From sequence record OZ035742.1: a DNA stretch of 64,000 nt. One strand, written 5' to 3'. Numbering within the stretch: position 1 is the first letter of the stretch; each line of letters begins with the position of its first letter. The notes beneath the pieces are model-generated. The model did no database searches, was not told the origin of the DNA, and was given only the letters and a program-made list of their open reading frames with translations. Of the stretch, positions 60,673 through 62,390 are shown one piece after another. The translations under genes were made by a program, and so were the position numbers. Source of the DNA: Felixounavirus AN17P8.

Positions 60673-60751
60673 GGGAGATTGACGGCAACTTGGTAGACCT
60701 ATCTCGCTTAGAACGAGATGCTTGAGGGTTCGAATCCCTTGTCTCCTACCA
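60673..60751 (+). tRNA. tRNA with Leu anticodon TAG, short variable arm
   Basis: Acceptor gggagat/gtctcct, anticodon stem tctcg/cgaga, loop ctTAGaa, T-arm gagggTTCGAATccctt; variable arm only 5 nt. Confidence 0.55.
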
Positions 60752-60758
60752 AATTAAT

Positions 60759-60834
60759 GCAGGTGTAGCAAAATGGTTATGCGGCTGACTCTTAATCAGT
60801 AAGACGATGGGTTCAATTCCCTCCACCTGTACCA
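60759..60834 (+). tRNA. tRNA-Lys(CTT)
   Basis: Acceptor gcaggtg/cacctgt, anticodon loop ctCTTaa, T-loop TTCAATT. Confidence 0.6.
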
Positions 60835-60840
60835 GACATT

Positions 60841-60916
60841 GGGGTCATAGTTTATATGGTTAAAATTCGAGTTTTGCAAACTTGGGAACCGAGTTCAATT
60901 CTCGGTGACTCCACCA
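60841..60916 (+). tRNA. tRNA-Ala(TGC)
   Basis: Acceptor ggggtca/tgactcc, anticodon loop ttTGCaa, T-arm ccgagTTCAATTctcgg. Confidence 0.7.
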
Positions 60917-60922
60917 ATTAGT

Positions 60923-60997
60923 GCATCCATAGTTTAAACGGGAAAATTACAGTCTTCCAAACTGAGGTTGAGGGTTCGATTCCCTCTGGATGCTCCA
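60923..60997 (+). tRNA. tRNA-Gly(TCC)
   Basis: Acceptor gcatcca/tggatgc, anticodon loop ctTCCaa, T-arm gagggTTCGATTccctc. Confidence 0.7.
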
Positions 60998-61004
60998 AAT
61001 TAAT

Positions 61005-61080
61005 GCTCCTATCGTATAATTGGTTATTACGGTTGCCTTGTAAGCAACTTATCAGGGTTCGAGTCCTTGTGGGAGCACCA
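61005..61080 (+). tRNA. tRNA-Thr(TGT)
   Basis: Acceptor gctccta/tgggagc, anticodon stem gttgc/gcaac, loop ctTGTaa. Confidence 0.65.
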
Positions 61081-61087
61081 ATTCAGA

Positions 61088-61171
61088 GGTCAAGTGAAAG
61101 ACCGCTTTGAGTCAACTGAAGACCGTAACAAATTCCACGAAGTTGAGTTAGCGGCACAACTTCAGACCTCT
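61088..61171 (+). ncRNA. candidate structured RNA between tRNA-Thr and tRNA-Val
   Basis: Closing stem AGAGGTC/GACCTCT around ~70 nt with internal complementary segments; no T-loop. Confidence 0.3.
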
Positions 61172-61176
61172 TTCAT

Positions 61177-61251
61177 ACTCGCTTAGTTTATATGGTAAAA
61201 CATCACCTTTACAAGATGAAGAAAAAGGTTCAAGTCCTTTAGTGAGTACCA
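61177..61251 (+). tRNA. tRNA-Val(TAC)
   Basis: Acceptor actcgct/agtgagt, anticodon loop ttTACaa, T-arm aaaggTTCAAGTccttt. Confidence 0.65.
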
Positions 61252-61252
61252 T

Positions 61253-61330
61253 GTTCCAGTATCCCAATTGGCAGAGGATGCAAGCTCAAACCTTGTATTA
61301 GTGACGGTTCGAATCCGTCTTGGAACACCA
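61253..61330 (+). tRNA. tRNA with Leu anticodon CAA, short variable arm
   Basis: Acceptor gttccag/ttggaac, D-loop aattggcag, anticodon loop ctCAAac, variable arm 6 nt, T-arm gacggTTCGAATccgtc. Confidence 0.55.
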
Positions 61331-61335
61331 ATTTT

Positions 61336-61411
61336 GCAGGATTAGTTCAAATGGAAAGAGCAACAGTCTACGAAGCTGTTAATAGGGGTTCGAATCCCTT
61401 ATCCTGCGCCA
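61336..61411 (+). tRNA. tRNA-Arg(ACG)
   Basis: Acceptor gcaggat/atcctgc, anticodon stem acagt/gctgt, loop ctACGaa. Confidence 0.7.
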
Positions 61412-61428
61412 GATAAAAAGGTGATACT

Positions 61429-61671
61429 ATGCAAACATTAACAGTAGTTGAACATGAAAACTGTGAGAGTATTGAGTTTGTCAGGGTCATTGGTGTTGAA
61501 CACCACATTTTCTTAAAAGTGGGATACTTATGTGACCCCGCTAGAGTAGAAAGATTTATACGTGATTGTTTTGGTGGTAGACATCTGAAGAGTGTTATTT
61601 TTGAGACAGTTTTACCAGAAGGTTTAGAAACGAATAATAACATTTACCTCCTTACAAGGATTAGACAATGA
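61429..61671 (+). CDS. hypothetical protein inside tRNA cluster
   Basis: RBS aaaaaggtga, 80 aa, coupled to next gene. Confidence 0.35.
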   Translation: MQTLTVVEHENCESIEFVRVIGVEHHIFLKVGYLCDPARVERFIRDCFGGRHLKSVIFETVLPEGLETNNNIYLLTRIRQ

Positions 61672-62225
61672 GATACTTAAAGTATGCTTCATGGATTTTC
61701 TTAGCTTTGTTAGAGCCATTTGCAGCAATCTTAGCAGTTATCTTAGCACCTTTTGTAGTTCCATTCTACAGTGAGAAGAAAGGACACTTGCCTTTCGGGT
61801 TCAGATGGATGGAGACTTATGACAACCCAATTGATGGTGATGCAGGTCATATCAAACGATGGACTAAGATTAGAGAGATTGGTAAGCTTGGTGTCTACAT
61901 GCAGAGAGTTGGATGGCTCTGGAGAAACAAAGCTTATAACTTCTCTTACCATGTATTAGGAAGAGATGTAAAAGATGTTACTAAGTGGAAAGGTAATATC
62001 AACGTAAGTTCTAACCCTGAAGATAATCAGACTGGTTATCTCCTAATGTGGAACAGTAATGCTTGGGGGTTATTCGCTTTTGTGCCGTCAATCAAAATCT
62101 TTGGTAAACAATTTTACTGGAGAATTTATATTGGGTGGAAACTTAAAAGCGTTGTCCCAGAAGAAAGAGCATTTTCAAGGGAAAGAGTTATGTTGGCATT
62201 CTTTATTCATCCACTAAGAAAGTAA
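61668..62225 (+). CDS. membrane protein inside tRNA cluster
   Basis: N-terminal TM segment WIFLALLEPFAAILAVILAPFVVPF; 185 aa. Confidence 0.4.
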   Translation: MRYLKYASWIFLALLEPFAAILAVILAPFVVPFYSEKKGHLPFGFRWMETYDNPIDGDAGHIKRWTKIREIGKLGVYMQRVGWLWRNKAYNFSYHVLGRDVKDVTKWKGNINVSSNPEDNQTGYLLMWNSNAWGLFAFVPSIKIFGKQFYWRIYIGWKLKSVVPEERAFSRERVMLAFFIHPLRK

Positions 62226-62233
62226 AGATTTAA

Positions 62234-62309
62234 AGGGGATTAGTTTACAAGGTTAAAACCTCGGTCTTTGAAATCGAAGAAGTTGGTTCAATTCCAACAT
62301 CCCCCGCCA
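62234..62309 (+). tRNA. tRNA-Gln(TTG)
   Basis: Acceptor aggggat/atccccc, anticodon stem tcggt/atcga, loop ctTTGaa, T-arm gttggTTCAATTccaac. Confidence 0.65.
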
Positions 62310-62311
62310 AT

Positions 62312-62390
62312 GCTCCATTACTCCAATTGGCAGAGAGGCCAGACTTAAAATCTGTGTTATGTATCGGTTCGAATCCGATATGGAGTACCA
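62312..62390 (+). tRNA. tRNA with Leu anticodon TAA, short variable arm
   Basis: Acceptor gctccat/atggagt, D-loop aattggcag, anticodon loop ctTAAaa, variable arm 7 nt, T-arm atcggTTCGAATccgat. Confidence 0.55.

Follow-up and report, generated by a model that had tools for sequence, protein, structure and literature searches.

Three tRNA genes with leucine anticodons (TAG, CAA, and TAA) in the tRNA cluster of a Felix O1-like coliphage are confirmed to lack a long extra arm, and the comparison with other phages, with bacteria, and with the known identity elements argues that they are genuine, conserved type I tRNA-Leu of the phage which are probably charged with leucine by the LeuRS of the host. 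They are new members of a known but seldom recognised kind of tRNA. The window, i.e. the whole stretch of DNA that was analysed (64,000 nucleotides; OZ035742.1), belongs to Felixounavirus and shows 93–97% identity to Felixounavirus genomes in megablast comparisons. ARAGORN places in it a cluster of 26 tRNA genes including the three for leucine (58373..63585, all on the plus strand), and the gene order of this cluster is the one published for Shigella phage Sf14. A protein encoded near the cluster is annotated as RNA-binding, which prompted an Rfam search of the gaps between the tRNA genes; for Y-RNA-like and tmRNA-like RNAs, this search of the gaps gave only sub-threshold noise.

The G+C content of the phage is 39%. 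The fractions of the leucine codons in the window are 0.237 for TTA, 0.144 for TTG, 0.100 for CTA, and 0.176 for CTG, with TTA, TTG, and CTA together accounting for 48%, and Leu[TTA] is listed in the Felix O1 genome paper among the codons aided by phage tRNAs.

Coordinates and folds of the tRNA-Leu genes

The three genes, all of type I, all on the plus strand, and all detected by ARAGORN with an encoded CCA, are those for tRNA-Leu(UAG) (60673..60751, 79 nt, Rfam tRNA score 30.5 bits), tRNA-Leu(CAA) (61253..61330, 78 nt, 44.0 bits), and tRNA-Leu(UAA) (62312..62390, 79 nt, 47.5 bits), designated TAG, CAA, and TAA in the following. The ARAGORN folds and the segmentation of the sequences give variable regions of 5 nt (TAG), 6 nt (CAA), and 7 nt (TAA) without an additional stem-loop, in agreement with the original prediction of variable arms of 5–7 nt, and the canonical long arm that folding software might have revealed in their place was folded by ARAGORN in none of the three. 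A variable arm of more than 10 nt with a stem-loop, as is characteristic of type II, occurs in no Leu tRNA of the window, all of them being short, and TAG, CAA, and TAA each combine a Leu anticodon with a variable loop within the 4–7 nt of type I. The Ser and Tyr tRNAs of the same cluster, for which long arms had also been predicted, do possess them according to ARAGORN and serve as internal comparators: tRNA-Ser(UGA) (60329..60418, plus strand) comprises 90 nt, tRNA-Ser(GCU) (63413..63505, plus strand) 93 nt, and tRNA-Tyr(GUA) (58933..59020, plus strand) 88 nt.

In the comparison with the Rfam family RF00005, which has a curated threshold of 29 bits, all three Leu tRNAs align to model positions 1–71, with TAG barely over the threshold. 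Single-sequence thermodynamic folding, which is uninformative for tRNAs and in whose place covariation was used, formed the acceptor, anticodon, and T stems, the D-stems being weak or alternative and the z-scores unremarkable. A refolding of the three Leu tRNAs into a long-armed form was considered and is excluded by the gene lengths.

It is virtually inconceivable that the hand fold behind the original prediction was wrong and that the tRNAs are in fact long-armed or of another identity. A length of 78–79 nt including CCA leaves no space for the arm; the full-length alignments by Rfam, by ARAGORN, and by the custom model show the Leu tRNAs with a short loop; in tRNAscan-SE-annotated GenBank records, they appear as tRNA-Leu with lengths of 77–79 nt; and no point supporting such an artefact was found.

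Leucine identity elements and isotype

Leucine identity in E. coli depends on A73, A14, A15 together with U48, G18G19, and A20a, U20 not being listed as essential, and can do without both the anticodon and the long arm (PMC9976931). All three phage tRNAs contain A73, ending in ...A-CCA, and U48. CAA (variable region ATTAGT) and TAA (variable region GTTATGT) both have T8 and A9 and a D-arm of 17 nt with the sequence YYC-C-AATTGGCAGA-GRR (TCC-C-AATTGGCAGA-GGA in CAA, CTC-C-AATTGGCAGA-GAG in TAA), which has the same layout as the E. coli sequence GYG-R-AAT[TC]GGTAGA-CRC and in which the order C13 A14 A15 U16 U17 G18 G19 C20 A20a G21 A22 is exact. TAA in addition shows a G1.U72 pair and the anticodon loop CTTAAAA. 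TAG (variable region TGCTT) has two wobble pairs, G1.U72 and U7.G66, an anticodon loop CTTAGAA with A37 where the host has G37, and an irregular D-arm of 19 nt (ACGG-CAACTTGGTAGA-CCT) in which C11 and C24 are mismatched and the D-loop exceeds those of CAA and TAA by 2 nt; the E. coli identity bases are present in this D-loop, but the stretch ahead of G18 is 2 nt longer. With its A37, TAG is incapable of carrying m1G37, and for TAA and CAA i6A37 and Cm/Um34 are conceivable modifications. Of the Leu-like D-loops noticed originally, those of CAA and TAA hold exactly, whereas that of TAG is related but lies in an irregular arm. The G9 of class II is found in TAG, and CAA and TAA carry A9; similarly, position 20, which is "always a U in EctRNALeu" (PMC3643597), is U20 in TAG and C20 in CAA and TAA. 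Two of the interpretations that had been offered agree with these features, namely that of structurally reduced Leu tRNAs, with short variable regions and A73 and U48 in all three, and that of an identity set by other elements, with the Leu-type D-loop of CAA and TAA as a further candidate.

A type I tRNA-Leu family model (R1), which was built solely from 56 bacterial sequences, gives 73.8 bits for CAA and 72.0 bits for TAA, about 15 bits above the 57.3 bits of the best non-Leu tRNA in the window, and 54.4 bits for TAG, which is within the range of the non-Leu tRNAs; the type II Leu tRNAs of E. coli obtain 58.6–64.3 bits. In the published tRNAscan-SE isotype scores of Sf14, Leu is the top isotype for all three tRNAs (Leu_CAA 49.1, Leu_TAA 60.2). 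Mooglevirus Sf17, a sibling of Sf14, has a CAA gene identical to that of the window and a TAA gene differing in 1 nt, but since its TAG slot holds an allele other than that of the window, the TAG score of Sf14 may not transfer. The proposed isotype check therefore speaks for leucine in this sibling table, with a reservation for TAG.

The E. coli K-12 genes leuZ, leuW, and leuX have lengths of 87, 85, and 85 nt, of which 15, 13, and 13 nt form the variable region. They share with the phage genes the same anticodons, A73, and U48, and E. coli tRNA-Leu resembles the phage tRNAs in the 17-nt D-arm with its 3-bp stem and in the placement of A14 A15, G18G19, and A20a; leuZ and TAA also have G1.U72 in common. 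In contrast, E. coli tRNA-Leu contains G9, G13, U20, and U32, and its UAG isoacceptor G37 and U38, whereas CAA and TAA have A9, C13, and C20, all three phage tRNAs have C32, and TAG has A37.

Conservation in phages and the type I family

Of 263 phage records, 215 contain the TAA gene with an identity of at least 99%, and other genera of the Ounavirinae keep the short Leu form despite heavy sequence divergence, both of which argue against chance as its origin. In Erwinia phage Pistou, the Leu tRNAs comprise 77, 78, and 77 nt and in Pectobacterium phage Arno162 78 and 77 nt, with long Ser and Tyr tRNAs in either phage, and the acceptor and anticodon stems of these Leu tRNAs are wholly altered yet pairing. 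The TAG slot is occupied by three unrelated alleles among different Ounavirinae, and the related TAG alleles of FG1m and Arno162 retain the same C11.C24 mismatch. In FG1m, a complete phage genome, a deletion of either natural or laboratory origin merges CAA and TAA to a hybrid gene whose acceptor stem is mismatched, so these two genes are not strictly essential. Short Leu tRNAs were also found in an Aeromonas T5-like phage and a Lactobacillus phage. For 150 diverse tRNA-Leu of type I from viruses, pairing occurs in 98.0% of the cloverleaf cells, and each of the 20 pairs is changed on both sides; their covariation score of 1.015 compares with 0.225 for shuffles, and in slid controls 36–47% are paired.

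Viral contigs were scanned in two ways. The first scan, with a gapped pattern, selects for the D-arm motif, and its ratio of short to long tRNAs is not taken as a frequency, whereas the second one was anchored on a non-Leu tRNA motif and yields a Leu-independent sample. In this sample, 13 of 45 Leu tRNAs (about 29%) are short; A73 and U48 are present in all 13, and the Leu-type D-arm occurs in 11 of them, compared with 2 among 425 other tRNAs of class I. In the larger viral set, the short Leu tRNAs contain A73 in 184/193 and U48 in 177/193 cases, and the Leu-type D-arm in 181/193 versus 6/1064. Position 9 is A in 154 of 193 short Leu tRNAs and G in 48 of 55 long ones. The variable loop of the family normally comprises 5 nt, a norm exceeded by CAA with 6 and TAA with 7 nt.

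Many Actinobacteria carry a tRNA-Leu of this short design as an ordinary chromosomal gene in single copy, and the Leu tRNAs of the window are members of a type I tRNA-Leu family that is widespread in phages and bacteria. The original prediction started from class II as the normal form of bacterial tRNA-Leu, a premise which is correct for the host but not universal. Short-armed phage tRNA-Leu are not mentioned in the Felix O1 genome and Sf14 tRNA papers, within a limited literature, nor in the tRNA-array papers, mycobacterial tRNA surveys, and viral tRNA modification review. The coliphages T4 and T5 also have a Leu tRNA in their tRNA clusters, but these tRNAs are long-armed (87 nt in T4, 85 nt in T5), which may have contributed to the scant attention paid to the short form. 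Notes in the T5 record point to the use of suppressor versions for establishing the identity of T5 tRNAs.

Comparison with known short-armed tRNA-Leu

For the type I tRNA-Leu(CAA) of Streptomyces coelicolor, the single bacterial representative of type I that has been examined, leucylation with a bacterial LeuRS has been demonstrated (Fan et al., NAR 2019, PMC6614811). Like the phage tRNAs, it combines a Leu anticodon with a short variable loop (5 nt, ACAGC); it has a U8-A14 pair and shares one compartment with other tRNAs. The most common variable loops of the phage family, NCAGT, differ from ACAGC chiefly at the last base. Unlike the phage genes, however, it is a chromosomal actinobacterial gene, the LeuRS of that organism has a leucine-specific domain of a specialised type, A73 does not serve as an identity element there, and its loop ends with C48, whereas the tRNAs of the window, from a coliphage, have loops of 5–7 nt and U48, an E. 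coli determinant. E. coli LeuRS failed to charge the S. coelicolor tRNA and was described as specific for type II (PMC6614811); C48 instead of U48 may be the reason for this failure.

According to the summary in PMC9976931 of three studies (Asahara et al. 1998; Tocchini-Valentini et al. 2000; Larkin et al. 2002), engineered E. coli tRNA-Leu without a variable arm stays active and is charged by E. coli LeuRS, provided that A73 and the tertiary contacts between D- and T-loop are present. The features needed by these constructs are those which the phage tRNAs keep, the constructs themselves being laboratory-made and derived from E. coli sequences. The variable loop is short in animal mitochondrial tRNA-Leu as well, where A73 and A14 act as identity elements (PMC9976931), but this tRNA differs from those of the phage by its dedicated mitochondrial LeuRS, its floppy structure, and its organelle-specific lineage.

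Probable charging by the host LeuRS and alternative explanations

The host LeuRS would charge the phage tRNAs through recognition of A73 and the D-loop/tertiary core, as has been reported for E. coli tRNA-Leu, for which the anticodon and the long arm are both dispensable; the charged tRNAs would then decode UUA/UUG and CUA-type codons. That tRNA-Leu alone has lost the arm may be due to its being the sole long-arm tRNA whose synthetase can dispense with it; the size of the variable arm is the major serine identity element. The genes were probably inherited or acquired already as type I and not formed by a recent deletion in a host copy, since in their D-arm they agree with the pan-phage and bacterial family of type I and not with E. 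coli's own tRNA-Leu. Several points count against the three being type I tRNA-Leu charged by the host LeuRS, namely the failure of E. coli LeuRS with the S. coelicolor tRNA, the reported preference of the leucine-specific domain of E. coli LeuRS for a large variable-arm loop (PMC3643597), C20 in CAA and TAA, the variable loops of 6–7 nt versus the 5-nt norm, and, for TAG, the irregular D-arm and the low scores (Rfam 30.5 versus 29 bits; R1 54.4 bits).

A recent local reduction, in which the lineage took over a class II tRNA-Leu from the host and then deleted the arm, is very improbable: positions 8–25 of CAA match the type I consensus in 17/19 cases versus 11/19 for leuX, A9 in CAA and TAA is the base of most viral short Leu tRNAs (154/193) and not of the long ones (G9 in 48/55), the bacterial type I model scores both genes above E. 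coli's own tRNA-Leu, and the short form is older than the split of the Ounavirinae genera. Moreover, a blastn comparison of the CAA gene with 5,426 complete E. coli genomes, prophages included, gave no match. We also regard it as quite unlikely that the three tRNAs are inefficient leucine acceptors in E. coli and are either passengers of a mobile tRNA cluster or tRNA-shaped decoys, primers, or regulators, as might be suspected from the inability of E. coli LeuRS to charge the S. coelicolor type I tRNA-Leu (PMC6614811), from the poor score of TAG as a tRNA (Rfam 30.5), from the turnover suggested by its three unrelated alleles, and from the CAA–TAA fusion in FG1m, which indicates that the genes are not strictly essential. 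Opposed to these points are the strong purifying selection, with at least 99% identity of TAA in 215/263 records and 80–95% for its surroundings in most of them, and the covariation of every stem across the family. Furthermore, the conserved elements are those of LeuRS identity and go beyond a generic fold, the encoded CCA and A73 are retained, and the anticodons suit heavily used codons of the phage.

Selection for counter-defence, i.e. loss of the arm and changes in the anticodon loop that hide the phage tRNA-Leu from host toxins, is unlikely; such toxins would recognise the class II shape or host-type anticodon loops, the Leu supply of the phage would then persist, and the process could operate alongside charging by the host LeuRS without replacing it. 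Toxins of the MenT/AbiEii nucleotidyltransferase family indeed use the long variable loop, MenT3 depending on that of tRNA-Ser, but MenT3 acting in E. coli modifies tRNA-Leu at less than about 5% of the rate observed for tRNA-Ser, levels of Leu-tRNA-Leu are undiminished in vivo with MenT3 in E. coli, and the phage Ser and Tyr tRNAs, which would be better targets, retain their arms. The share of type I among the tRNA-Leu of the Leu-independent viral sample (about 29%) would be consistent with such selection, yet the short design is also a normal gene in many Actinobacteria, where evasion of an own toxin is no obvious driver. The anticodon loops differ between phage and host (TAG, CTTAGAA/TTTAGGT; CAA, CTCAAAC/TTCAAAA; TAA, CTTAAAA/TTTAAAA), at position 32 in all three, at 37 and 38 in TAG, and at 38 in CAA, and substitutions in this loop have been proposed to let phage tRNAs evade nucleases (van den Berg et al. 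2023, PMC10264068); shortening of the variable arm, however, leaves the anticodon loop unchanged. The literature searched yielded no tRNA-Leu-directed toxin or nuclease from E. coli or Salmonella, and the Sf14 paper names VapC, which acts on tRNA-fMet, as the sole case for Shigella. The suggested resistance to an anticodon nuclease lacks direct support; the loops are indeed unlike those of the host, yet no nuclease cutting tRNA-Leu was found for these hosts.

With charging by the host LeuRS as the preferred reading, it is conceivable, and we put this forward tentatively, that phages circulate a host-independent, "portable" type I design of tRNA-Leu, i.e. one conserved family compatible with the LeuRS of hosts from Proteobacteria to Firmicutes and Actinobacteria. 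The members of this family would be characterised by U8, mostly A9, a Leu-type D-loop, a variable loop of about 5 nt ending with U48, and A73, and type I would make up roughly a third of the phage tRNA-Leu genes. Portability across hosts would follow from LeuRS being the only synthetase of a long-arm tRNA that ignores the arm.

Implications

In textbooks and recent reviews, a long variable arm is regarded as characteristic of bacterial tRNA-Leu, and the single bacterial exception that we found described is one tRNA of S. coelicolor. Hundreds of sequenced phages of E. coli, Salmonella, and Shigella carry exclusively short-armed Leu tRNAs, which are under strong purifying selection, and the loss of the arm in Leu with its retention in Ser and Tyr is a clean case of differential constraint. 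For annotation, this means that short "tRNA-Leu" calls in phages need not count as pseudogenes. If the portable design should prove true, the armless form would avoid confusion with Ser and Tyr tRNAs in a new host, the handle for class II-directed defence toxins would be lost as well, and E. coli LeuRS would charge a natural type I tRNA, contrary to the statement that it accepts only type II. The short Leu tRNAs of these phages represent a natural test of what E. coli LeuRS needs and may provide a compact tRNA-Leu scaffold for engineering.

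The tRNA cluster and its three short leucine tRNAs

The tRNA region of the window (58300-63700) is 93-97% identical to Felix O1-like myoviruses of Escherichia coli, Salmonella, and Shigella, with 406 matching records and Escherichia typing phage 1 as top match (97.2%). ARAGORN predicts 26 tRNA genes on the plus strand (58373-63585), in the order published for Shigella phage Sf14 (Mooglevirus, also Ounavirinae). A 471-aa protein encoded directly upstream (56791-58206, +) matches DUF2828 and DUF7788; Salmonella phage FG1m (PP068123) has an ORF of the same length in the corresponding place, annotated as "RNA-binding protein". 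In the gaps of the cluster, Rfam searches revealed no Y-RNA-like or other known RNA families. A purine is the rule at tRNA position 37. The tRNA-Met(CAT) of the cluster (58626-58702, +) has the anticodon loop CTCATTA, i.e., U37, and its acceptor stem begins with a T1/C72 mismatch; it was not reported by Rfam at E ≤ 0.1, and its loop is also given in the Sf14 paper.

tRNA-Leu(TAG) (60673-60751, 79 nt), tRNA-Leu(CAA) (61253-61330, 78 nt), and tRNA-Leu(TAA) (62312-62390, 79 nt), in the following designated TAG, CAA, and TAA, were placed by ARAGORN, lengths including the encoded CCA, exactly where the original prediction had claimed short-armed tRNAs with leucine anticodons. The general tRNA model of Rfam (threshold 29 bits) accepts all three end to end (TAA 47.5, CAA 44.0, TAG 30.5), and the claim is thus borne out. 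The variable loops of CAA and TAA are unusual with 6 and 7 nt; the comparators leuZ, leuW, and leuX of E. coli K-12 have 87, 85, and 85 nt and variable regions of 15, 13, and 13 nt. As also predicted, the serine (90 and 93 nt) and tyrosine (88 nt) tRNAs of the cluster keep ordinary long arms.

Leucine identity

The identity elements of E. coli tRNA-Leu comprise A73, the A15-U48 pair, G18G19, A20a, and D/T-loop contacts; neither the anticodon nor the long arm is crucial, and arm-less constructs are still active (PMC9976931). All three window tRNAs possess A73 and a U as last base of the variable loop (U48). The 17-nt D-arm of CAA and TAA, YYC-C-AATTGGCAGA-GRR, superimposes on the E. coli arm GYG-R-AAT[TC]GGTAGA-CRC, sharing a 3-pair stem, unpaired 13/22, A14 A15, two bases, G18 G19, one base, and A20a. 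The Leu-like D-loop proposed for all three is exact for CAA and TAA. TAG has a related but irregular D-arm of 19 nt, in which C11 and C24 are mismatched and G18 is preceded by two additional bases. Isotype-specific models had been proposed as a check, and the published tRNAscan-SE scores for Sf14 rank leucine first for Leu_CAA (49.1, next 36.1), Leu_TAA (60.2, next 54.2), and Leu_TAG (67.4, next 65.7); in Sf17, a Mooglevirus sibling of Sf14, the CAA gene is identical to that of the window and TAA differs by one base, but the TAG slot holds a different sequence.

TAG, which barely passes the Rfam threshold, is still read as a tRNA-Leu because of its anticodon, A73, and U48, together with the lack of G3.U70 and of a long arm, if less securely than CAA and TAA. 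The C11.C24 mismatch is also kept by related alleles in FG1m and Pectobacterium phage Arno162. Across the Ounavirinae, the slot between tRNA-Ser(TGA) and tRNA-Lys(CTT) harbors three different short-armed Leu(TAG) alleles: that of the window, that of FG1m (locus L003, 5421-5498) and Arno162 (L002, 3911-3988), and a Mooglevirus type with a GCCCAATTGGAAGAGGC D-arm (L371, 1269-1345), suggesting repeated replacement at a single position. Bacterial leucine tRNAs for CUN codons usually carry G37. Among viral leucine tRNAs with NAG anticodons (loci L004-L248), 46 of 78 short ones and 11 of 27 long ones have A37, as does TAG.

The type I family in phages and bacteria

In an alignment of 150 diverse viral short leucine tRNAs including those of the window, standard pairs occupy 98.0% of cells, and each of the 20 cloverleaf pairs has changes in both partners; the covariation score is 1.015 vs 0.225 after shuffling, and slid controls reach just 36-47% pairing. 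The commonest first acceptor pair is G.U (69 of 149, including TAG and TAA); G1.U72 also occurs in E. coli leuZ (L124, 316-402). When the window was searched with a covariance model of type I tRNA-Leu built from 56 bacterial sequences only, CAA scored 73.8, TAA 72.0, and TAG 54.4 bits, the best other window tRNAs 57.3 and 56.5 bits; the long-armed E. coli leucine tRNAs reach 58.6-64.3 bits. By these scores, CAA and TAA are clear members of the family, and TAG is not separated from the non-leucine tRNAs of the window. An origin by recent deletion from a host leucine gene seems unlikely, because their D-arm is closer by far to the type I consensus than to E. coli tRNA-Leu, because they carry A9 as do most short leucine tRNAs (long ones have G9), and because a search of 5,426 complete genomes of E. 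coli found no sequence similar to the CAA gene.

IMG/VR was scanned for the D-arm motif and a downstream T-loop, the space between them being large enough for most long arms, and yielded at least 120 loci; among the matches listed, 125 of 128 motif-bearing tRNAs have a leucine anticodon and all 128 measure 74-79 nt. Three short leucine tRNAs each are found in an Aeromonas T5-like phage (Demerecviridae; 77 nt each) and in Lactobacillus phage LpeD (Herelleviridae; 74-77 nt), with long serine tRNAs in both; the leucine tRNAs of the model coliphages T4 and T5 are of the ordinary kind (87 and 85 nt). In Aeromonas phage AhP_Mru1, two annotated suppressor tRNAs with the stop-codon anticodons CTA and TCA (L127, 900-974 and 1796-1869) share a cluster with three short-armed leucine tRNAs. 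For a leucine-independent frequency, viral sequences were scanned with a motif typical of non-leucine tRNAs; in the 120 loci among the matches listed, 13 of 45 leucine and 0 of 30 serine tRNAs are short. All 13 have A73 and U48, and 11 have the Leu-type D-arm, vs 2 of 425 other short-loop tRNAs. The identical D-arm motif, applied to one bacterial genome per species, retrieved about 105 short leucine tRNAs and no long one. In most cases this is a lone tRNA-Leu(UAA) gene, found in Nocardia, Mycobacterium, Gordonia, Rhodococcus, Arthrobacter, and relatives; others belong to Planctomycetota and cyanobacterial tRNA arrays. The lone gene of these Actinobacteria (loci L249-L368), Rothia among them, has the D-arm of the phage family.

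Conservation within the Ounavirinae

Of 263 matching phage records, 215 carry the TAA gene at 99% identity or more; most records match the region around it at just 80-95%. The leucine tRNAs of Erwinia phage Pistou (Kolesnikvirus; 77, 78, and 77 nt) and of Arno162 (78 and 77 nt) have rewritten acceptor and anticodon stems with pairing retained, and their serine and tyrosine tRNAs stay at 83-93 nt; the short form is therefore older than the Ounavirinae genera. In place of CAA, Pistou has a short-armed tRNA-Leu with anticodon AAG (loop CTAAGAA; L001, 5497-5574) between tRNA-Val and tRNA-Arg(ACG); A34 normally needs deamination to inosine. FG1m contains a hybrid (L003, 5999-6076) with the 5' part of CAA and the 3' end of TAA, joined inside the T-arm common to both, GGTTCGAATCCG; its acceptor stem is left mismatched, and tRNA-Arg(ACG), two ORFs, and tRNA-Gln(TTG) are lost with the deleted stretch.

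Probable charging and function

Most likely, the short tRNAs would be charged by the host leucyl-tRNA synthetase (LeuRS) via A73 and the D-loop/core and would go on to read UUA, UUG, and CUA-type codons. TTA, TTG, and CTA account for 23.7, 14.4, and 10.0% of leucine codons in the long ORFs of the window, and CTG for just 17.6%. Leu[TTA] was already listed in the Felix O1 paper as one of the codons likely aided by phage tRNAs. Leucine alone may be able to shed the long arm, whose size is the major identity element for serine; bacterial TyrRS binds the long arm of its tRNA, too.

Resistance to an anticodon nuclease, raised in the original prediction, is a minority explanation which could add to charging by the host LeuRS, not replace it. 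The anticodon loops do differ from those of the host (all three have C32, and TAG also has A37 and A38), and toxins of the MenT/AbiEii family make use of long variable loops; however, a literature search revealed no tRNA-Leu-targeting system for these hosts, the serine and tyrosine tRNAs of the phage retain their arms, and Actinobacteria carry the short design as a normal chromosomal gene.

The main caveat is that the sole bacterial type I tRNA-Leu studied, tRNA-Leu(CAA) of S. coelicolor, was not charged by E. coli LeuRS, which according to the authors charges type II only (PMC6614811). The leucine-specific domain of this enzyme reportedly favors tRNAs whose variable arm has a large loop. CAA and TAA also carry C20, besides their unusual variable loops. 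The S. coelicolor variable loop, ACAGC, ends with C48, whereas those of the phage tRNAs end with U48, which pairs with A15 in the identity set of E. coli, and judged from sequence this difference may explain the failure.

Type I tRNA-Leu has been known from mitochondria and from a single Streptomyces tRNA, and the literature searched yielded no account of phage copies or of a broad distribution in bacteria. The window genes are additional type I tRNA-Leu, in a host whose synthetase is considered unable to accept such tRNAs.
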